IMG/VR virus record: IMGVR_UViG_3300006615_000024
Source of the DNA: a virus
Strand: one strand, 5' to 3'
Length of the DNA stretch: 64,000 nt
Shown: positions 34,594-45,212 of the stretch, in pieces
Position numbering within the stretch: position 1 is the first letter of the stretch
Layout of the letters: every line of letters starts with the position of its first letter
Notes under the pieces: generated by a model
Databases searched by the model: none
What the model was told of the DNA's origin: nothing
Seen by the model: only the letters and a program-made list of their open reading frames with translations
Made by a program: the position numbers and the translations under genes

Positions 34594-34819
34594 CGGAGTT
34601 CACCTTATAATTATCATTAATCTTAGTCAAACCTTTTAGTAAAACATCTAGTTCATCCATGTTCATTCGGATTCCTTTTCTAGACGGTTTACCATTAGTG
34701 TACCACCTAACATCTACTACATCTATTTTGTAGTATTGTCCTTTCTTTACTATCATTTCCATTGTCGCATTTCTTGGTATTCTTAATACCGTTTCTAACT
34801 CTTTACTCATTCGTACCAA
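34580..34819 (-). CDS. PC4/YdbC-like ssDNA-binding protein
   Basis: VVDVRWY...PSRKGIRM...EL signature. Confidence 0.75.
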   Translation of the reverse strand: MVRMSKELETVLRIPRNATMEMIVKKGQYYKIDVVDVRWYTNGKPSRKGIRMNMDELDVLLKGLTKINDNYKVNSDESN

Positions 34820-35208
34820 CCTTCCTTAAATCTATTCAAATCTTTTAGAGAAGTAAACGTTCTAATTCCTTCAACGTCATCAACTCTTGTGGCGATATAC
34901 ACCACGCCCCCTAAACTACTAATCTTAATTATCTCATATGTTCTATTCTCAGGATGTTCGTAAACTTCCATTGTTTCTATCTCAGGAACTAAACCATAGT
35001 TCTTAGATAGTTCTGTACTTATTGAGTTAATGTTGTTAGCAACATACTTTATTATCAATGCCTTTTGTATTGGGACTTTAGCATCAACTACTAGTTTTAT
35101 TTTACCACTCATTTCACAAACAATACACTTGTTACCTAAACAAATAGGACACTCTATCTCCGCAGGAAGCGGAGCAGGGAACTGAACAGTTACTGCTTTC
35201 TTTTTCAT
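34807..35208 (-). CDS. Hypothetical protein with a CxxCxGxxCxxC Zn finger
   Basis: CPICLGNKCIVCEMSG. Confidence 0.6.
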   Translation of the reverse strand: MKKKAVTVQFPAPLPAEIECPICLGNKCIVCEMSGKIKLVVDAKVPIQKALIIKYVANNINSISTELSKNYGLVPEIETMEVYEHPENRTYEIIKISSLGGVVYIATRVDDVEGIRTFTSLKDLNRFKEGWYE

Positions 35209-36223: not shown

Positions 36224-36446
36224 CTTCTTTCGCCTTCCTTCTTTCGTGCATCACATCTTCAAACGCATGAAGTTGTGCTTCAGTCATATGACTAGTAAAT
36301 ATAGTACCACTAATCATATGAATATCAGTAAGATATGTGTTTTTCTTCAACATACCTTGTGCTTCTTCATTAATGCAATACCCACTAATGTCATCTACCT
36401 TCAGAGTAGTGACACCTGAATTAGTTACTAGACTAATTAATCTCAT
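36216..36446 (-). CDS. Hypothetical protein
   Basis: 76-aa ORF overlapping its neighbours. Confidence 0.55.
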   Translation of the reverse strand: MRLISLVTNSGVTTLKVDDISGYCINEEAQGMLKKNTYLTDIHMISGTIFTSHMTEAQLHAFEDVMHERRKAKEDE

Positions 36447-36952
36447 TCCTCTTCCCCACTGTATGAACTCTGTTGTTCTAATAGCCCATAGAAAACTTTC
36501 TTTGCTACAATAGTTTCAGGATTGAATGCTAGATATTGGTTATCACCAAGAACAATAGCAGACTTTAGTATAGGTTTCCAAGTGTTAATTGTTGACCAAT
36601 CAGTTGAACTGAAATAAGCCTGACCAAAAGGATGAGTGTGAATCCAACACTTAATCGGTATTCTCATCGGTGCGCCGTTTACTAGTTCATCTTCATGCCC
36701 TTCGAATGATACATAGGATGGGTCGCCACTGCTGATGTATAAATCATCTTTATCATCAACAACTACTTGTACTTCCATTCCTTCTAATGTATCTATTGAC
36801 ATTTTCCAAATTGCTGTTAGGAAGGCTTCAGTGGAATTGTTAGGGAAGAGATATTCTATATCATCTGCCATATCATTATGCACATCTCTTATGTGCTGTT
36901 TCCAATCAAACTCCTTCATTGCCTTTTCATTTTCTGTTACTTCTTTTTCCAT
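36443..36952 (-). CDS. JAB/MPN+ (JAMM) metalloprotease
   Basis: Upstream Glu (MEVQVV) plus HTHPFGQAYFSSTD = HxHx7SxxD. Confidence 0.9.
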   Translation of the reverse strand: MEKEVTENEKAMKEFDWKQHIRDVHNDMADDIEYLFPNNSTEAFLTAIWKMSIDTLEGMEVQVVVDDKDDLYISSGDPSYVSFEGHEDELVNGAPMRIPIKCWIHTHPFGQAYFSSTDWSTINTWKPILKSAIVLGDNQYLAFNPETIVAKKVFYGLLEQQSSYSGEEE

Positions 36953-36954
36953 TT

Positions 36955-37098
36955 TTATTCCTCCTCATTTTTCTTTGCTGACGCTCTCTCTAATTGAATC
37001 CAATTAGAAAACGTTAGACTTTCGTTTATTCTTCCATCAAGTAATGCTTGTTCATAATCATCACGCATCTCTTGAAACTTTCTTCCCATCTTTCCCAT
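36955..37098 (-). CDS. Hypothetical microprotein (47 aa); not in the ORF track
   Basis: MGKMGRKFQEMRDDYEQ...; exactly fills the gap between annotated ORFs. Confidence 0.5.
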   Translation of the reverse strand: MGKMGRKFQEMRDDYEQALLDGRINESLTFSNWIQLERASAKKNEEE

Positions 37099-37337
37099 TA
37101 TATTCCCCCCATATTATCTATAATCATATCTTGACTGTTAACAAACTCATGATAGGCTCGATGACCCGCAATGAATCCACCTGCATGTCTTTTAGTTCCT
37201 AAGAACTCCTCACCACAAACAGGACAAGTAACCTTTACTATCTCTGCTTGTTGGTAATATCCATCTGTTGAAATTACATTCATAACTTCGTCAATCATTT
37301 GTTCATCTATGTCTTCTATATTCTCTTCATCACTCAT
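37098..37337 (-). CDS. C2H2-like Zn-finger protein
   Basis: CPVCGEEF...HRAYH. Confidence 0.6.
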   Translation of the reverse strand: MSDEENIEDIDEQMIDEVMNVISTDGYYQQAEIVKVTCPVCGEEFLGTKRHAGGFIAGHRAYHEFVNSQDMIIDNMGGI

Positions 37338-37606
37338 ATTTTCACCTTCATATAATGTCTTAATGTTTTTATTGGCCTGAGTATTTGTTTACTCTCGACC
37401 TTGGTTTCTGTTTTAGATTCTACTACTGTTGTAGTTTTACTAAAAGCACTTACACCACTTTTTATTCTTCGCCTGTACTGTTCTCTCCACATTACTTGAA
37501 CACAGTCATTGCAGAACCTTCTGCTATCTGCCAAGTGTTCGGGAACAGGCTCATCCTCTTTACCACAAAGAGTCTTTCCTAATATTGAAAAACAGATATA
37601 TTTCAT
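37334..37606 (-). CDS. Cys-containing hypothetical protein
   Basis: C...CG...CNDC; coupled overlaps. Confidence 0.5.
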   Translation of the reverse strand: MKYICFSILGKTLCGKEDEPVPEHLADSRRFCNDCVQVMWREQYRRRIKSGVSAFSKTTTVVESKTETKVESKQILRPIKTLRHYMKVKI

Positions 37607-37749
37607 TATTCAAAACCCCCTCTCTCTATTATTCTTTTCTCTAGTAGTTTTAGTGAACCATACCTACCTTTGTCATAGCACTTCCAACAGAGTGGGCGAC
37701 CAATATAGGTAAACTTTGATTCGTTTTTATTACATACTATGCACTTCAT
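37606..37749 (-). CDS. Zn-finger microprotein (47 aa); not in the ORF track
   Basis: MKCIVC...LCWKC; overlaps at both ends. Confidence 0.55.
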   Translation of the reverse strand: MKCIVCNKNESKFTYIGRPLCWKCYDKGRYGSLKLLEKRIIERGGFE

Positions 37750-37958
37750 TTTTCCATCTCCTTTTCCACCTTCCACTTCAATACTAAAGCCCTCACTAAC
37801 TTTGTTTTACTAATTCCAACTCTATTTTGCCATCCAGTTCCATCAGGTATATTCAAAAGAGTGCAAAGTTGCTTTATTGTAAACATATCGTATAGTTCAT
37901 CTTCAATACTTCTCTTCCTTTTGATAATTGATTTTGCTTCTTTTATCTTATCAATCAT
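37746..37958 (-). CDS. Hypothetical protein (possible SAP/Rho-N-like helical domain)
   Basis: TIKQLCTLLNI...GISKTKLVRAL. Confidence 0.45.
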   Translation of the reverse strand: MIDKIKEAKSIIKRKRSIEDELYDMFTIKQLCTLLNIPDGTGWQNRVGISKTKLVRALVLKWKVEKEMEK

Positions 37959-38185
37959 GTTTCCTTCTCCTTGTAAGCAGAATGTGTCTTTGGTAATCTA
38001 TGTAATCTTCTACTCATCATATTATTGATAAGAGAAGAAACAGAGTCAGCCCCATCCAAGAATCTTTTCTCTGCTGTCTTGTCACCTGAAGGACACATCT
38101 TCTCTTCTAATTCTGTTAAGTCTATTCTATCCATAAGATGCTTCAGTACTTCATACTCAACGTGTATCTTAGAAGCGGCTCTCAT
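37955..38185 (-). CDS. Hypothetical protein
   Basis: 76-aa ORF, ATGA overlaps. Confidence 0.55.
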   Translation of the reverse strand: MRAASKIHVEYEVLKHLMDRIDLTELEEKMCPSGDKTAEKRFLDGADSVSSLINNMMSRRLHRLPKTHSAYKEKET

Positions 38186-38400
38186 TGAAATACCTCCACC
38201 TGAGAAACTTTCAGAGTACTAGTAGCATCCCAATCATGAATCCATACTTCAGTTTGTACATCATCGTCTCGTATTCCCATTTCCCTTGCTGAATAGTAAA
38301 TATCTCTATCATTGAAAAACTTCTCTAGAAACTTATCTATTTGTTCAGGATATCCTGTCAGTGTTAGCATACTATCTGCTCCCCTACTTGGTGTAGACAT
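38182..38400 (-). CDS. Hypothetical protein
   Basis: 72-aa ORF directly downstream of the E1 gene. Confidence 0.5.
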   Translation of the reverse strand: MSTPSRGADSMLTLTGYPEQIDKFLEKFFNDRDIYYSAREMGIRDDDVQTEVWIHDWDATSTLKVSQVEVFQ

Positions 38401-38990
38401 TAAACATTCACCACCATTTTATCAGCAACGTTCTCATTGTCTTGCCACCATCTTTGAATCCACTGTACTGCAATACCTGCAATTGCAACTTGCATACAGT
38501 TTACTTGTTCAGGACTACCATCCCAATCTCCACCTTGACAACTGAATGAACCTTCTGCACCTGCTAACAAATCATCAACGAGATTAGCGTTAACCTTGTA
38601 AGAGATTAATGCCGCATTACGGCCTTGCGCTCTCAAATCTAACCACTTAGTTTTAGCATCATCACCATAACCTTGACGATATAGTAATCGCCTTACTGCT
38701 AGGTTATCAGCACAACAAACTACTAGGTCATACCCTTTCAATTGCTTCTCTACTAATACTTGATACGGTTGAGGCTTTACAGGTTTTAACCCATTTACCT
38801 TCAATCTATTATTGAGAGCATTAACCTTTGTCTGCCCTACCATATCAGCCATGAAGTTCTGATATGTTAGATTCTTCTCTTCTAACTTATCGTCATCAAA
38901 TACTGTTATGTCATAAATACCAATTCTCGATAGGAAGTCAACTAAATAACTTCCAATTCCACCTGTTCCTATTATCATTACTTTTCTCAT
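38400..38990 (-). CDS. ThiF/E1-family Ubl-activating enzyme
   Basis: IIGTGGIGS, DDDKLEEKNLTYQ, KVNAL, VCCADN, DLRAQG; candidate catalytic Cys in FSCQ. Confidence 0.9.
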   Translation of the reverse strand: MRKVMIIGTGGIGSYLVDFLSRIGIYDITVFDDDKLEEKNLTYQNFMADMVGQTKVNALNNRLKVNGLKPVKPQPYQVLVEKQLKGYDLVVCCADNLAVRRLLYRQGYGDDAKTKWLDLRAQGRNAALISYKVNANLVDDLLAGAEGSFSCQGGDWDGSPEQVNCMQVAIAGIAVQWIQRWWQDNENVADKMVVNV

Positions 38991-39865
38991 TCTCTTATTC
39001 CTCCAATTATTTTATTTACATTATATTTATTCAAGATAGTTCTTTCTATCTGTATTAGTTCACATATTTTTCTTATGTGTATTCTCAATGTTACTTCACT
39101 AATATTGACTGTTGATGCTAGTTCTCTCTGTAATACAGGATAATCTAACATTTTACATGCAATATATACTGCTCCTGCGATTTCACCATTACCCACTCTA
39201 ACGTTAACAGTTTCATAATAGTTAGATACATAGTCAACGAATGTATAAACAGGTTTTCTATCTTTGATATCTGCCCCTGACTTATCTAAACATACAGTCA
39301 CTACATCATGAACATCTCTAACACCAAAGATATGAGACTTACGATAGAACTTGGCTATCTTTTTAGAAGCCCTCATTATCTTACTTCTATGAACCCCTGT
39401 TGTTTTCTGTAAAGACTTGAGCGATACAAAAATACTTTCATCCTTTAGAATGAAGTATGCTAAACCTGCGGCTCTAACTTCTGTTGGTAGACCAACTAAT
39501 ACTCTATTTCGTTGTAACTCTTGATAGTAGTGTTCTACCTCTCTTCTTAATGAGAGTTTATACGGTTTGTAAGGAGATAGATACATCATACATGTATTGT
39601 GAGTTGCTATATCTCCTTCTGACCAAAACTTACTCTTTGCCTCGGTCTTAATATGGTTGAGTCTTAGATTATGTTTTACAGACGTTTTACTTCTATTACC
39701 GAATTGTATTGTACTGCCCATACCATATTTAGAATCTGATTCCATTGCACTAGATGTTTCCTCGAATATCTCGACATTAAGCACAAGACCACAATCAGAA
39801 CATATGTGGTAGCCCAACCTATCATCAAACGATGATTCAGTTGAGCCACACTCCATACACTTCAC
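38987..39865 (-). CDS. tfb: Transcription initiation factor B (TFB/TFIIB) homologue
   Basis: N-terminal Zn ribbon CMECG...CSDCGLV; two cyclin-like repeats (AAGLAYFI; AGAVYIACK...QRELA...ISEVTLR). Confidence 0.85.
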   Translation of the reverse strand: MKCMECGSTESSFDDRLGYHICSDCGLVLNVEIFEETSSAMESDSKYGMGSTIQFGNRSKTSVKHNLRLNHIKTEAKSKFWSEGDIATHNTCMMYLSPYKPYKLSLRREVEHYYQELQRNRVLVGLPTEVRAAGLAYFILKDESIFVSLKSLQKTTGVHRSKIMRASKKIAKFYRKSHIFGVRDVHDVVTVCLDKSGADIKDRKPVYTFVDYVSNYYETVNVRVGNGEIAGAVYIACKMLDYPVLQRELASTVNISEVTLRIHIRKICELIQIERTILNKYNVNKIIGGIRE

Positions 39866-41166
39866 GCTTTAGCCTCCAATGCTTTCTTTGCCGCATAGTC
39901 CTGTTCTTTCTGTTTAGACCAAGAGTTTAGTTTGGACATATCCATACGGTAATTATCAGGGTTTACTAGGTTTCTTTCAGATGCTTGCTTCACGTAATCA
40001 ACAATAGTATAGATACTCTTGGCAGATGTTTCATCATTCATTAGTGCTAATGCTCTAGCAGTTAATTGGTCGCCAATGCTTGAGTTCCTATGAATATTAT
40101 CAATACATATTGGGCCAGTGAGTGAATGACCTTTCCAAGTTTTAGAATCGTCTGAATCTTTACCATTAATCAAGTATGTGTTAACATTCTGATGACCAAG
40201 TTTCATACCTTTCTTCTCATCAACAACAACCCAATCAGCAACTTTACCTCTAACGAATAGAGCCTTGTTCATTGGGTTTCTGAATTGAACCAATCTAATG
40301 TTTGGATATTCAGCATCCATATCATGTAGTAGTTTTGTTGCTCTGTCTTCAACCATATTCTGCTTTCTGTTTTGCATTAACCATGCTACACATAACTTTA
40401 GTTCTGTTGGACTGGGCATATTACCCATTAGTAATCGCCATAGTTTTGAGGGGTCTGCTCTGTACCAAGTCTTGGACTTTGATTGACCAAATCTAAATGT
40501 ATTAATGAAGACATTCAAATCTTTAAGGGTAATAGCACCCCAAACACCTTCTGAAATCTCTAATGCACATTCAGTCTCACTGATAACTTTAGTGTTAATC
40601 AACACCTCATGCCTTTCACCTACATGATAAAAGTTGTAATTACTTCTATTCTCAATAGCATGAAGAACATTAGGTGGATAGTGAACAACCTTCTCAATAT
40701 AATCATCCATTACAAGAACGTCTCTTACAAACGCACCACGTATTATTATCTTGGATAGAACAACTGCGAGGTCTTTCTTACTTACCCTAACTCCATCAAT
40801 ATGGTGTCCACTGCCCTTTCGACCATAAACAATAATACTTTCACCGTTATGATATTTGAAAGTTATAGTGTTCAAGAAGTTTTCATTCTGTATTTTAGTC
40901 AACAAAGCGTTAGTTATTAGTGCAGAAGTACTTGTTAGTACAGGGTCTTGTTCACCTTTAACATTTGATAGGCTTGGCCTAGTTACTTGCCACTGTAATT
41001 CTCCAAATTGATTTAAACTATTTCTATTAGTTCTGAACTTATTTGTATGTTGATGCCAAACACTTCTAAACAAGTTTTTCTTTGAAGACCTCAATAAAAA
41101 ACTACTAGTTGTGTAATTCCTTGTGTCATCTCCCACTGAGGGAATTATTACTTTTATTTTTACCAT
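39862..41166 (-). CDS. Hypothetical protein with a possible C-terminal E2-like (UBC) domain
   Basis: GPICIDN resembles the E2 active-site GxICL/ID motif; located between the E1 and Ubl genes. Confidence 0.4.
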   Translation of the reverse strand: MVKIKVIIPSVGDDTRNYTTSSFLLRSSKKNLFRSVWHQHTNKFRTNRNSLNQFGELQWQVTRPSLSNVKGEQDPVLTSTSALITNALLTKIQNENFLNTITFKYHNGESIIVYGRKGSGHHIDGVRVSKKDLAVVLSKIIIRGAFVRDVLVMDDYIEKVVHYPPNVLHAIENRSNYNFYHVGERHEVLINTKVISETECALEISEGVWGAITLKDLNVFINTFRFGQSKSKTWYRADPSKLWRLLMGNMPSPTELKLCVAWLMQNRKQNMVEDRATKLLHDMDAEYPNIRLVQFRNPMNKALFVRGKVADWVVVDEKKGMKLGHQNVNTYLINGKDSDDSKTWKGHSLTGPICIDNIHRNSSIGDQLTARALALMNDETSAKSIYTIVDYVKQASERNLVNPDNYRMDMSKLNSWSKQKEQDYAAKKALEAKA

Positions 41167-41449
41167 TTTTATTCACCTTTTTATTTTCTTTTTCCCAATG
41201 TTTGGCATCACCATAATTGTGTAAATACCATGCGTCTCTTTCTATATGAGAGGCAAGTTCTTCCATTGATTTGAAAGAACTATGCCCTCCTACAACAGCA
41301 CGTTCCATAGAATAATACAACTTATTGTATCTGAGATTACCACTCTTGTATAGTTTGAAACTCTTATCTAACAAAACCCTCTGAGGGATAGTTACACTAG
41401 TCCTAATAACATACTCAAAGTTAAGGAAATCTCTTTCTTTAATTAACAT
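41126..41449 (-). CDS. Hypothetical protein with an internal AVVGG
   Basis: 107-aa ORF between nrdJ and the E2-like gene. Confidence 0.5.
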   Translation of the reverse strand: MLIKERDFLNFEYVIRTSVTIPQRVLLDKSFKLYKSGNLRYNKLYYSMERAVVGGHSSFKSMEELASHIERDAWYLHNYGDAKHWEKENKKVNKNGKNKSNNSLSGR

Positions 41450-43351
41450 CTATACTTCACATGCTCCACCTGCACAGGCTATTTCGCCCTGAAGGTTGGT
41501 GGTATCCTCCAATTCTATTACTTCAGTCAAATCTATTGGGTGTAGTTGTTTGACCATTTCATTATATCTTTCTTCATCTATCTCCTCAAACGGGGCTTGC
41601 TTATATTCTCCACCGTTGTAAGGTAAGAAAGACATACCATTGTATGAATGTCTATTATCCCATAACCATTGAGTTACTTCTTTCCATTCTGTTGGTTTAA
41701 CGTAAACAGTCGCCGAAACATTATGTCCATTGTTTCCTCTACGATGCCCAGTTTTAACCCAATTCTCAGAAACAAACTTCACACGTTCTAACATCTCTAA
41801 AGCAGTTTCATCTGCTCTTGTTGTCACATTATCGTATGGAATAGTTTGTGGTATAGACAGTACTGCACTCTCATCTTCTTTACCTATTTCATCTTCAACC
41901 AAATTAGGAAGTTTCTCTAACAAGTAAGGATAGATTGCTTCACTCTTACCTACACGAACCGACCTAATGTAGTACTTACCATACCATGCATGAATACCAC
42001 TAGAAGTTCCTAAAACACAACTAGTTGTTCCTGCGGGTTTAACGCACGTAGTTCTAGCGGCTTCGTTAATACCAAGTATCTTGGCGTAAGTAGCATTAGT
42101 TGTCTTAACTAACATTGCCGCTTTATTATACCAAGAACCTTCTACTTTGTTACTAGCAATACCTGTCATACCAATACCAATAAGAGCATCTTTCTCGGTG
42201 TTTCTTCTCCAAACTTCTCTAAGATAGTGAAAGTCAGTATATGTTGCTTGTACTGTTCCTAAGAATGTAGCCGCTTCTACACGTTGTAGTAAATCATTTT
42301 CATCTTCAACATTGGATACATTAACTTCGCAAAGATTGCAGAATTGATAGGGGCGTAGTCCAATCTCTACACAAGGATTTGTACCCCAATCTTTGTCATT
42401 AGTCAGGTAAACGCCGGGTTCTCCTGAAAAACTATTAGCAACATTAGACATTAGTTCTTTGAAGAAATCTTCAGTAACTCTATGCCTTAATACAACTGCT
42501 GAATTGTTCGCTCTATATCTTTGAGCATTACCTTCTTCAGCAAAGTTACCTGCTTTAGCGTTAATCATCTCTCTATCATCAGCACTGAATAAACTAATTA
42601 AAGCAGAACGGCGAATACCACCTGATAAAACAGTATCAGCAATATAGCACATCATATCATGTGCTTCGATTGGTTTAATCTTATGACCTTCTTCCATCTC
42701 GTTGAACATTCCTTGAATGATAACAATACATTTCTTTAGTGGTTCAGGGCCGGGTGCATTTCCACCTGTTGTTTTGAGTCTAGCACCTTTAGGTCTAACA
42801 TCAGAATAGTCGAATCTAGGCACTGTTGTTCTCTTACCTGTGTAACTATCAAAGAGTACTCTTATTGCTTCAGCCCAACCTTCAATAGTGTCGGCTACCT
42901 TATACCTATATGTTCTATCAGCACTAGGCTTTCTAACAACAGGTAGTTTGTCAATGTGATGTTTCTGTACCGAGAAGCCAACTCCTGTCCCGCCTAATAG
43001 TAAGAACATCGCTTCACTAAAGGATAACGTACTATCTACTGGTAAGAATGCACAATTGTATATTCTGTTTGGAGATACTTCTATTGGCTTTCCGCCAAAC
43101 TGCATTGAACGCATTGATGGAAGTATCTTTCGAGTCTTAACAAAGTCTTCATACACTTCATATAATTTAGTTGCAACAACAACAGAATTATCTGTATCTA
43201 GGTCTAATTTTTGTTTAATATGTTTAAGATGCATATCCCGATTTCTATCGCAAATCTCATCCCATGTTTCTTTTCGTTGTTCTGTTTCTAGCCACTTAGC
43301 ATACTTCATATTCTCTACGGTTTCTGCTAGTACTTCATTTCCTAATTTCAT
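41450..43351 (-). CDS. nrdJ: Class II (B12-dependent) ribonucleotide reductase
   Basis: YNCAF, GTGVGFS, GGIRRSA, TNPCVEI, VKPAGTTS, C-terminal CAGGAC. Confidence 0.95.
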   Translation of the reverse strand: MKLGNEVLAETVENMKYAKWLETEQRKETWDEICDRNRDMHLKHIKQKLDLDTDNSVVVATKLYEVYEDFVKTRKILPSMRSMQFGGKPIEVSPNRIYNCAFLPVDSTLSFSEAMFLLLGGTGVGFSVQKHHIDKLPVVRKPSADRTYRYKVADTIEGWAEAIRVLFDSYTGKRTTVPRFDYSDVRPKGARLKTTGGNAPGPEPLKKCIVIIQGMFNEMEEGHKIKPIEAHDMMCYIADTVLSGGIRRSALISLFSADDREMINAKAGNFAEEGNAQRYRANNSAVVLRHRVTEDFFKELMSNVANSFSGEPGVYLTNDKDWGTNPCVEIGLRPYQFCNLCEVNVSNVEDENDLLQRVEAATFLGTVQATYTDFHYLREVWRRNTEKDALIGIGMTGIASNKVEGSWYNKAAMLVKTTNATYAKILGINEAARTTCVKPAGTTSCVLGTSSGIHAWYGKYYIRSVRVGKSEAIYPYLLEKLPNLVEDEIGKEDESAVLSIPQTIPYDNVTTRADETALEMLERVKFVSENWVKTGHRRGNNGHNVSATVYVKPTEWKEVTQWLWDNRHSYNGMSFLPYNGGEYKQAPFEEIDEERYNEMVKQLHPIDLTEVIELEDTTNLQGEIACAGGACEV

Positions 43352-43517
43352 TTTCCTTCTCTCCTTTAATAAGTGTTTTTAGTAGGCATTTCACCTACTT
43401 GACATCTGCCCCGATGCTAGGACTACAAACGTGCGTGATACAGCATATAGTAGTTATCTCCCAAGTGTATATACCACAAGGGGTTTCTTGAAAATCCGAC
43501 TTGTTTTATTTATCGAA

Positions 43518-43718
43518 TTAATAGCCGCCGACAATAGCAGGGACTAGGTTCACATTATCAACAGTTGACCAATCTATGTTGGTTATGTTCTGTCTGCTTA
43601 CCATATCACCGTCAACATAAACCCAATGAGTTGGGTGTTCTGCTATCTGCTCAATCATCTCTGCACTAGATACTTCTAGTTCAGTGTGGCCTGTTTCATT
43701 CATTATTCGCAATTTCAT
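43518..43718 (-). CDS. Ubiquitin-like beta-grasp protein (ThiS/MoaD/SAMP-like) ending in GG-Y
   Basis: 66 aa: beta-beta-alpha, WVYVDGDMV, terminal strand VNLVPAIVGG followed by one extra Tyr. Confidence 0.8.
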   Translation of the reverse strand: MKLRIMNETGHTELEVSSAEMIEQIAEHPTHWVYVDGDMVSRQNITNIDWSTVDNVNLVPAIVGGY

Positions 43719-43750: not shown

Positions 43751-44026
43751 TTAAGACTCTGTTGACTGTCTTGCTTGGTTAAGCGTATTCTCTAATGATG
43801 AAATGTAGGATTTTAAGTCCTTCTTATCACCAAGGAGTTGTATCTGCATTGACTCGTAAACTTCAACCTTCTGTCTGAATGCTTGAATAGTTCCTTCTAA
43901 TCCTTTAGCATATTCTAGAAGACGATTGAAATCTTCTTGCAATGTGTTTACGGGTGTTTGCTCCACCACTGCTTCTTCTGTCACTTCTTCAGTTTCTTCT
44001 TTCATTTCCTTATTCTTCTTACTCAT
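43751..44026 (-). CDS. Coiled-coil hypothetical protein
   Basis: Heptad pattern, 91 aa. Confidence 0.6.
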   Translation of the reverse strand: MSKKNKEMKEETEEVTEEAVVEQTPVNTLQEDFNRLLEYAKGLEGTIQAFRQKVEVYESMQIQLLGDKKDLKSYISSLENTLNQARQSTES

Positions 44027-45212
44027 GAACTTCCCTCCATGTACCTTTTCTTACTACTGGCCAAGCATCAGTTTTTTTTAATACTTCTATCTCCTTAGAT
44101 GCTTGTTGTTTAGTAAGTAATGTCATATCCCCTTCATATCCTAATCCTTTTAGAAAGTTAAGTTGTGGCTCTGTTGCCTTGGTAGTCTTACGTGTCAGTA
44201 AAATCTCCTTTAACCTTTCGGCTTGCTTTACTGTTGGTTCGCCTCCTCTAGTGAATAATCGCTTCATATCTCTCAAAAAACCACGTTCCCAAGAATTAAT
44301 ACCATCTTCAAACGCATCAAAAACAGGGAAGCCAAAGTAGAGACATGCTTCCATAAACCTACGTTCTGCTACATCATGCTCTCTGAGTTTACTCATCTTA
44401 TCCTTAATGTCTAAGTCCAAGTTTTCTAGGAATACTTTCCTGTCTTCTACATACTTGTCCTCAACACCTAGTTGTTCTAGATAGTCATCAATGTATATTG
44501 AAAATAAATCCATATCACCTAACAACTTATCGTTAGGATAACCTCTAGTCTTACTCTGCGCTCTCTTGTTATCAGGATGATTCCATCTCCAAACAATAGA
44601 AGCCATTTGATAATCCTCTCTACCGAACTTACCTGAGCCTGTTTTTCTAATGTAAGTTACAGGACGGTATTCTTTGAGTTCAGTGTCATAGTATTTCTTA
44701 TCTGTCTTCTTAACGTTAAGTCTCAAGTCTAGGTCTTTGATTTCATCAAACAGGTTAGTAAACTCTTCACCTTCATCGTCCCACCATGCCTCTTTAATCA
44801 AAGTCTGAACAGCAACGTTCTTCCACTCTTCTATCTTTTCTTCAGTGATAGCACTAATAGGGATATTAAGTGTCTCAGACATGTGTCTTAGAACCATCCA
44901 ATTGTTAATACAAGTTGAACCAACAATCTCCTTAACATTGTTTACCGTGTTCTCTATTTCAAAGTGGTAAACAATATCTTTACCACATAGACAATTATGT
45001 GGATGACCACTAGGATGATTTAGAATAATATCTCTATATCTTCCATAAGGCGACCTCTTCCAAACATTACCTGTGATACGCCATTCTTTCTTTGCTATCT
45101 CATAGTCATCCGACTCAGATAATGCTAACAATCTTGAAGTTAAAGCAGGGTAATTATTACCTCTCTTTAAGTTCCTTTCATTATCTATATCATTCATCTG
45201 AATCTTCCCCAA
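44019..45212 (-). CDS. Hypothetical protein with a CxCG...VGSxC Zn motif and a C-terminal ATxxQ helical module
   Basis: NCLCGKDI...IVGSTCI; KATEPQLNFLKGLGY...TKQQASKEI. Confidence 0.6.
   Translation of the reverse strand: MGKIQMNDIDNERNLKRGNNYPALTSRLLALSESDDYEIAKKEWRITGNVWKRSPYGRYRDIILNHPSGHPHNCLCGKDIVYHFEIENTVNNVKEIVGSTCINNWMVLRHMSETLNIPISAITEEKIEEWKNVAVQTLIKEAWWDDEGEEFTNLFDEIKDLDLRLNVKKTDKKYYDTELKEYRPVTYIRKTGSGKFGREDYQMASIVWRWNHPDNKRAQSKTRGYPNDKLLGDMDLFSIYIDDYLEQLGVEDKYVEDRKVFLENLDLDIKDKMSKLREHDVAERRFMEACLYFGFPVFDAFEDGINSWERGFLRDMKRLFTRGGEPTVKQAERLKEILLTRKTTKATEPQLNFLKGLGYEGDMTLLTKQQASKEIEVLKKTDAWPVVRKGTWREVHE

Follow-up and report, generated by a model that had tools for sequence, protein, structure and literature searches.

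Complete ubiquitin-like (Ubl) conjugation systems of prokaryotes are, to our knowledge, so far known as cellular machinery: the SAMP system, the ubiquitin systems of Caldiarchaeum and Asgard archaea, the antiviral Bil system and CBASS. The locus described here is found in viral DNA, in a stretch of 64,000 nucleotides from the IMG/VR record IMGVR_UViG_3300006615_000024 (below called the window), where positions 36443-43718 encode a Ubl, a ThiF-type E1, a 434-aa protein with an E2-like domain and a JAB protease. It is on balance probable that a large clade of magroviruses encodes its own predicted pathway for Ubl conjugation and deconjugation, and these ocean viruses of archaea probably tag proteins themselves; conjugation as such, its targets and its purpose are what we infer. 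If this is true, an abundant virus holds the same weapon as the cells. The locus adds a previously unannotated E2-like family (184 clusters at 50% identity) and offers small parts for biochemistry in the 196-aa E1 and the 66-aa, nearly lysine-free Ubl. It also puts right the labelling of the E1 as a metabolic gene, 'moeB', and bears on how ubiquitin-type signalling has spread among archaea, bacteria and their viruses.

All four roles of BilABCD (classes 6D and 6C of Iyer; Type I and Type II Bil) recur in the proposed viral set: a Ubl with residues past the reactive glycine, a pre-processing JAB, an E1, and a diverged E2 whose kinship shows mainly in its structure. In Bil the JAB pre-processes the Ubl, and the E1 and the E2 then conjugate it; the logic of the viral set would be alike (PMC10557695). 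BilABCD is, however, a bacterial cellular operon for antiviral defence, whose E1 is built of several domains (IAD+AAD), with a mobile Cys domain and a site for zinc, and whose E2 carries a CEHH motif, while the viral set belongs to an archaeal virus and has a single-domain E1 of 196 aa without zinc, an E2-like domain at the end of a 434-aa protein, and an embedded gene for the transcription factor TFB. None of the PADLOC models, whether for Bil or for other systems, match the viral set, apart from generic E1(-E2) matches of the E1.

The SAMP-UbaA-HvJAMM1 system is similar in its archaeal setting, its small ThiS/MoaD-like modifier ending in GG, its ThiF-type E1 and its JAMM deconjugase. It has no E2, in contrast to the viral set with its E2-like protein, and UbaA is MoeB-like and also takes part in sulfur transfer. 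Sampylation is connected to a transcription factor through the turnover of TBP2 in Haloferax (PMC4895103). The sulfur-carrier pathways QbsCDE, CysO-Mec+, ThiS-ThiF and MoaD-MoeB also combine a ThiS-like carrier having residues after GG with a JAMM protease and a ThiF-family adenylating enzyme. Unlike these, the viral set comprises an extra UBC-like Cys protein and an E1 without the CxxC zinc site. Neither a rhodanese nor a desulfurase nor a sulfur-acceptor enzyme is found in the nearest genome record, G001 (92.7 kb, 94% complete), which stands in for the window in the search for sulfur genes. PRTRC and CBASS Cap2/Cap3 are related through E1 similarity (PRTRC_ThiF 1.1e-13, Cap2 4e-10) and through being carried on mobile elements. 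However, all these scores are below the family cut-offs, the A and C proteins of PRTRC are lacking, as is a CD-NTase, and the viral E1 and E2 are unfused. The PRTRC models of NCBIfam matched no other protein of the window.

Pieces of such systems have been seen in viruses before: E1-like genes in the Asgard virus Nidhogg, a JAB and ThiF pair in a crAss-like phage, and TAPI/TAPK of phage lambda, a pair located in the tail module and lacking an E1. None of these has been described with a full set of Ubl, E1, E2-like protein and JAB. One Asgard virus has three E1-like genes. In Bacteroides phage crAss001 (gp77-gp76, L140:2256-4654) the replication module encodes a protein of 414 aa, which matches Prok-JAB weakly (E 4.9e-4), and directly downstream of it a ThiF-family protein of 383 aa. 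The two are annotated only as 'metalloprotease' and 'thiamine biosynthesis protein'. The paper describing RaFAH names MoeB/ThiF as one of the auxiliary genes most widespread in archaeal viruses, with a single, speculative sentence linking it to ubiquitination (PMC8276007). The main texts of the magrovirus papers mention neither ThiF, JAB nor ubiquitin, and one supplement lists 'moeB' among auxiliary genes. Outside subscription journals no prior account was found in which a virus of archaea or bacteria carries the Ubl, the E2-like protein and the JAB together. The viral set is of the prokaryotic E1-E2-JAB-Ubl kind, but virus-borne, minimal, and with a new E2-like family.

The proposed components lie within a long minus-strand gene array and are as follows:

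43518-43718, minus strand: Ubl precursor of 66 aa, ThiS/MoaD-like, ending AIVGGY; proposed modifier
39862-41166, minus strand: 434-aa protein (g434) with a C-terminal UBC/E2-like domain; proposed E2 plus substrate-binding part
38400-38990, minus strand: minimal ThiF-type E1 of 196 aa, a member of PF00899
36443-36952, minus strand: JAB/JAMM metalloprotease of 169 aa; proposed Ubl processing and deconjugation

An earlier reading of the letters and open reading frames (ORFs) of this DNA, below called the sequence-only reading, had proposed the system. The ORFs it described are all present on the minus strand within 7.3 kb, including the 66-aa protein ending AIVGG-Y.

The weakest item of that reading was the E2-like character of the 434-aa protein, which had been deduced from the GPICID motif. 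The protein has no match in Pfam (E up to 0.1), NCBIfam, PHROG or PADLOC, and a search of the ESM Atlas gave its own viral clusters only, or nothing. AlphaFold models lent this item genuine support: the full protein was predicted with a pLDDT of 81 using 15 homologues, and residues 258-434 with a pLDDT of 91 and a pTM of 0.83 using 100 homologues. Both models display a UBC/UEV-like fold at residues ~267-412, and in the model of residues 258-434 the elements follow each other as a helix, four to five strands, the Cys and three helices. When compared with the PDB using Foldseek the top 50 hits are all E2s, with a probability of 0.8-0.93 and E from 7e-3, and the same is the case for the top 30 hits among the Swiss-Prot models of the AlphaFold database (probability 0.77-0.97). 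An unbiased VIA-align search of 48,161 representative chains ranked E2S, UBE2F, Ubc9, the TSG101 UEV, RWD domains, FANCL, bacterial BubB and Cap2 at the top for both models, with Z of 3.1-5.5 and a root-mean-square deviation (r.m.s.d.) of 3.6-4.7 Å over 93-122 aligned residues. E2s thus dominate three independent fold searches, though with moderate scores. Since the hit lists are homogeneous and cover the full domain, we argue for a real, diverged UBC-like fold in the C-terminal domain (~258-420) of the modelled protein. The bacterial BilB has been reported to superimpose on eukaryotic E2s with an r.m.s.d. of 3.0-3.4 Å over 93-99 residues (PMC10557695), and the 3.6-4.0 Å over 102-122 residues found for the viral domain against E2s is comparable to this.

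Cys354, located in GPICIDN, and Gln326 are each retained in 113 of the 114 family representatives. In the model Cys354 is found right after the last strand and 10 residues ahead of helix 2. The predicted fold and this near-invariant Cys together support the E2-like assignment. The sequence HQN was considered as an equivalent of the HPN motif of E2s and ruled out, as its His is not conserved. The N-terminal 257 residues gave no convincing fold in the structure search. The middle part of the protein has a strongly conserved motif, P-x-N-V-x-x-A-x-E-N-R, at residues 164-174, which could be a second active or binding site.

The Ubl family is characterised by its C-terminus. In 47 of 49 distinct homologues (V/I/G)GG is followed by up to two freely varying residues (Y, C, SC, NQ, SL, IR and others), two homologues stop exactly at GG, and the Gly-Gly itself is invariant. 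As judged from these sequences, GG with a variable tail is the signature of a precursor that is trimmed to expose Gly-Gly. The Pfam family ThiS was matched by seven of ten Ubl members, weakly and below the cut-off (best E 0.0044), with alignments running through the ThiS C-terminus. An hhalign comparison of the Ubl family with nine ThiS/MoaD sequences taken from bacterial genomes gave P 0.0011, against 0.48 for the reversed control. The similarity to ThiS/MoaD is, at the level of sequence, weak but consistent, and because of these two results a beta-grasp fold is probable. The Ubl is nearly lysine-free, with one Lys (K2), and its last Lys or Arg is R42. Trypsin would therefore leave a 23-residue Ubl remnant, which makes diGly proteomics, suggested earlier as a means of detecting conjugates, unsuitable.

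The E1 is matched by the Pfam family ThiF (PF00899) with 66 bits (cut-off 28.1) and E 3.8e-18. A profile made from 23 E1 sequences matched UBA5 (8e-11), Cap2 (4e-10) and MoeB (1e-9) in the PDB, and Uba4, MccB and the NEDD8, SUMO and ubiquitin E1s down to 1e-6, the matches always being confined to the first ~100 residues. The Rossmann motif and candidate Cys named by the sequence-only reading are both there: GxGGIGS (G8/G10/G11), D32, K55, D95-N96, R100 and Cys151 are invariant in the family, Cys151 being the single Cys among them and located in GSFSCQ. Neither the family alignment nor Pfam displays zinc CxxC pairs or a rhodanese domain. The NCBIfam equivalogs all score far under their cut-offs (ThiF 55.5 bits against 275, MoeB 41.6 against 376, UbaA 45.7 against 450, PRTRC_ThiF 51.1 against 144.75), and by its profile scores the E1 therefore belongs to the superfamily without falling into any named subfamily. 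At 90% identity its family forms 764 clusters in ocean metagenomes, most of them derived from Tara and other marine data.

The JAB has the complete E...HxH...S..D motif of an intact JAMM protease, and the catalytic residues E60, H105-x-H107, S115 and D118 are invariant in 14 JAB sequences. The score against the Pfam family Prok-JAB is 17.4 bits, under the cut-off of 25. The JAB profile matched AMSH-LP (2.6e-4), AMSH, Sst2 and an archaeal Rpn11-like protein, with E up to 4e-3; these are true isopeptidases. Clipping of the Ubl by the JAB before activation, as proposed earlier, fits both the variable tails of 0-2 residues and the mechanism of Bil (PMC10557695), and cleavage by the viral JAB is predicted.

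A pathway can be proposed from these parts. The JAMM protease would trim the one or two residues after the VGG of the Ubl, as suggested by the variable tails and the Bil precedent. The 196-aa E1, probably as a homodimer, would then adenylate the exposed Gly, an activity predicted from its motifs. The Ubl would be passed as a thioester, possibly via Cys151 of the E1, to Cys354 of the UBC-like domain, where the modelled fold and the retained Cys make such chemistry plausible. The N-terminal 257 residues of the 434-aa protein may pick the targets, and the Ubl would be ligated to viral or host proteins. The JAB may also undo the mark.

The genes were compared in three sets of loci: 29 anchored on the E1 (53-100% identity), 80 anchored on the 434-aa protein (29-95% identity), and 80 of 318 relatives anchored on the DNA ligase, without pre-selection for the system. 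All loci reaching far enough have the common order 397-aa ORF, Ubl, (ribonucleotide reductase, RNR), E2-like gene, TFB, E1, (zinc finger), JAB, 133-aa ORF and ligase, an order which is retained down to 29% identity. Among the ligase-anchored IMG/VR loci, 48 extend at least 7 kb upstream; every one of these has the E2-like gene, TFB, E1 and JAB, and 44 have the Ubl, while in the other four the flank stops short of the Ubl position. TFB lies between the E2-like gene and the E1 in all loci. This recurrence of genes and order is far beyond chance, and in a large magrovirus clade the genes form a core block that is fixed and under purifying selection. Linkage by co-loss or co-gain was also considered as a measure and dropped, as no locus that extends far enough, whether anchored on the E1, the 434-aa protein or the ligase, lacks any of the genes. 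Contigs from seawater metatranscriptomes of three studies span most of the region with 90-99% identity, one variant being without a 72-aa ORF that lies next to the E1 gene in the window.

A pattern scan of GTDB genomes using the alignment of the 434-aa family gave no cellular relatives. In the corresponding E1 scan the only finds were magrovirus contigs binned wrongly, a single Aenigmatarchaeota contig and distantly related ThiF genes of bacteria. Three contigs in metagenome-assembled genomes (MAGs) of Maricaulis sp. IN14 and Altibacter sp. EAC109 (L110, L111 and L112) carry magrovirus E2-like, E1, JAB and 133-aa genes, with a clear TFB in L110 only, and look like viral contigs mis-binned into bacterial MAGs. 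The Aenigmatarchaeota contig (L113:5894-8836, JAUWZW010000004.1) encodes a 702-aa ORF, a 199-aa E1 homologue (39% identity, hidden Markov model E-value 1e-34) and a 79-aa ORF that ends ...KMKGG with no tail, and has a ParB-like gene nearby. Short motifs in the two flanking proteins resemble the viral E2-like and Ubl proteins. The hhalign results for the flanking proteins were not significant and the trio was rejected as an established independent copy; as a lead only, it may represent a tail-less form of the system, independent of the viral one.

Virus-encoded conjugation is favoured by the identification, from sequences and models, of all four predicted components: an E1, a JAB with the full motif, a GG-tailed Ubl, and a UBC-like fold with a near-invariant Cys. 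It is also favoured by the conserved order, the large families, the 4-nt overlaps joining the E2-like gene, TFB and E1, and the abutting E1, zinc-finger and JAB genes seen elsewhere in the clade. Several observations weigh against it. The closest similarity of the Ubl is to sulfur carriers. No sequence profile ties the 434-aa protein to E2 families, a profile of 100 C-terminal domain sequences matched no E2 among the PDB sequences, and the fold scores are moderate (Foldseek E 5e-3 to 3e-2, and VIA Z values of a size on which the tool itself cautions). The domain lacks the canonical HPN motif, with Gln326 kept but not His325. The E1 is ~50 residues shorter than MoeB, its activity and its docking of the Ubl are only predicted, and it has a near-invariant Tyr43 at the position of the nucleotide-binding Arg in NxxRQ ('NMNRLFF' in UBA5). 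The contigs from RNA libraries fit transcription without proving it, as carried-over DNA is possible. Finally, the sequence-only reading had proposed co-occurrence across magroviruses as a check, and the four genes are indeed together in every locus reaching far enough. However, TFB and unrelated neighbours are equally fixed, and because the whole block is core synteny, the co-occurrence neither discriminates between explanations nor counts as independent evidence of joint function.

Another explanation is that the genes interfere with a SAMP-type system of the host. The JAB would then strip host modifiers from viral proteins, while the E1, the Ubl and the E2-like protein would act as decoys or re-route SAMPylation or proteasomal turnover. 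The likeness of the JAB profile to AMSH and the Rpn11-like protein is consistent with this, and the many JAMM 'deSAMPylases' carried by Borg elements of archaea have been read in this way (PMC12660748). Moreover, bacterial Ubl systems attack phage proteins. However, the virus maintains, under strong conservation, an E1, an E2-like protein and a Ubl of its own whose tail is of the processed type, none of which a pure deconjugase strategy would need, and the E1 is not close to UbaA, as mentioned above. We therefore regard host interference as unlikely.

In the sulfur-carrier explanation the JAB trims a ThiS/MoaD-like protein, the ThiF-like enzyme adenylates it, and the resulting thiocarboxylate donates sulfur to a cofactor, tRNA or nucleotide with the help of host enzymes, while the 434-aa protein either has no part in this or relays sulfur through its Cys. 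Carriers extended beyond GG are known to be trimmed by a JAB in the thioquinolobactin (QbsE/QbsD) and mycobacterial cysteine (CysO/Mec+) pathways. ThiS/MoaD is the sole family signal of the Ubl, the top NCBIfam rows of the E1 are ThiF and MoeB, and in other work the E1 has been labelled moeB, an auxiliary metabolic gene. The missing steps could be supplied by host enzymes. Against this, the sister genome G001, the one searched, encodes no rhodanese, PP-loop ATPase/thiolase, cysteine desulfurase, ThiG, MoaE or PALP, while the ThiF control was found, so that the earlier statement that genes for thiamine, Moco and tRNA thiolation are lacking holds for that genome. The E1 has no rhodanese domain of its own and is far under the cut-offs of all sulfur-pathway equivalogs, and the UBC-like domain with its near-invariant Cys is co-conserved and translationally coupled. 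The absence of sulfur-partner genes from G001, taken together with the Cys-bearing UBC-like domain, favours conjugation, and a pathway for sulfur transfer alone appears improbable.

A further unlikely explanation is that the genes are mere neighbours held together by core synteny, with no joint work and with the 434-aa protein as a non-catalytic UEV/RWD-like scaffold that has another role. In its favour, the TFB, ligase, 133-aa and 397-aa ORFs are equally co-conserved, the fold Z is in the range where the tool warns of a shared arrangement only, and active E2s are ranked no higher than RWD and UEV domains. Against it, the genes found together within 7.3 kb, for an E1, a JAMM protease, a ThiS-like protein with a GG tail and a UBC-like domain bearing a Cys, match the composition of known prokaryotic conjugation operons (PMC1779556, PMC10557695), and a Cys as well retained as Cys354 is typically lacking in inactive UEV/RWD domains.

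Conjugation by a virus-encoded pathway, the preferred explanation, might involve more than one modifier. The small zinc fingers noticed in the sequence-only reading are encoded by ORFs between the E1 and the JAB, and one of these encodes a 79-aa protein with an acidic N-terminus and a CPxC...H...HxxxH zinc knuckle. All of its 35 distinct homologues end in [M/L/Q/T/V]GG plus exactly one residue (I/A/Q/V/L), and C38, C41, H51, H59, H63, G77 and G78 are invariant. The protein gave a weak match (E 0.016) to the zinc protein PF0385. In several lineages its gene lies directly between those of the E1 and the JAB, overlapping or abutting them. In the more divergent half of the clade the gene is absent and other genes occupy the gap, and the protein is therefore accessory and not core. 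The E1 of Type II CBASS is able to activate a C-terminus that is not part of a beta-grasp protein, which is a precedent for a GG-tailed zinc-finger protein, and by analogy the 79-aa protein may be a second substrate of the JAB or the E1. In the boldest version, a self-contained minimal cascade with two GG-tailed modifiers, the beta-grasp Ubl and the zinc-finger protein, would be co-transcribed with TFB and would covalently re-program or destroy host proteins of transcription or defence. We consider this version rather unlikely; if true, no virus of prokaryotes would have been shown before to have a complete Ubl conjugation system, and a new E2 family would be added.

The surrounding genes were assigned as follows:

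44019-45212, minus strand: 397-aa ORF, conserved neighbour upstream of the Ubl, in the same position in relatives; no family match, membership uncertain
43751-44026, minus strand: 91-aa ORF
41450-43351, minus strand: class II (B12-dependent) RNR (TIGR02505, 3.8e-80); interleaved cargo
41126-41449, minus strand: 107-aa ORF
38987-39865, minus strand: viral TFB (Pfam Zn_Ribbon_TF 7e-8, TFIIB repeat 1.8e-4); membership of the system uncertain
between the E1 and the 79-aa ORF, minus strand: five small ORFs that vary among relatives
37098-37337, minus strand: 79-aa zinc-finger ORF with a GG+1 end; candidate second JAB/E1 substrate
36955-37098, minus strand: 47-aa ORF

The system is located in the early/replication block and is wrapped around the viral TFB gene, which according to the coordinates has 4-nt overlaps with both the 434-aa gene and the E1 gene. 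TFB and RNR had both been described as interleaved with the system. This is constant for TFB and true of RNR in some lineages only: RNR is missing from a whole sub-lineage (L016-L026) that retains the Ubl, E2-like, E1 and JAB genes, and has therefore been rejected as a part of the system.

The window has the split family-B polymerase (PolB) and archaeal ATP-dependent ligase of magroviruses, and the near-identical or related IMG/VR contigs are 35-102 kb long, with 92-102 kb for near-identical ones. These features, together with a gene content that agrees with published descriptions of magroviruses (PMC5434244), bear out the archaeal-virus origin proposed earlier. Magroviruses are tailed viruses that have been assigned to Marine Group II/Poseidoniales archaea.

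Beside the ligase, and in every related locus, is the 133-aa ORF (34807-35208), which begins with the CxxC...CxxC zinc motif CPICLGNKCIVCEMSGK. The 72-aa ORF just downstream of the E1 (38186-38409) is not found in the nearest IMG/VR relatives, and contigs from two RNA libraries skip this stretch (224 bases, with 6 in its place). Between the E1 and the JAB lies a hotspot in which small ORFs are gained and lost. Many minus-strand ORFs between 34000 and 46000, for instance the JAB and the 47-, 61-, 114- and 76-aa ORFs, have acidic ends (...EEE, ...EDE, ...EEEI) directly before the next start codon, and these may represent a purine-rich ribosome-binding signal placed inside the end of the upstream gene.

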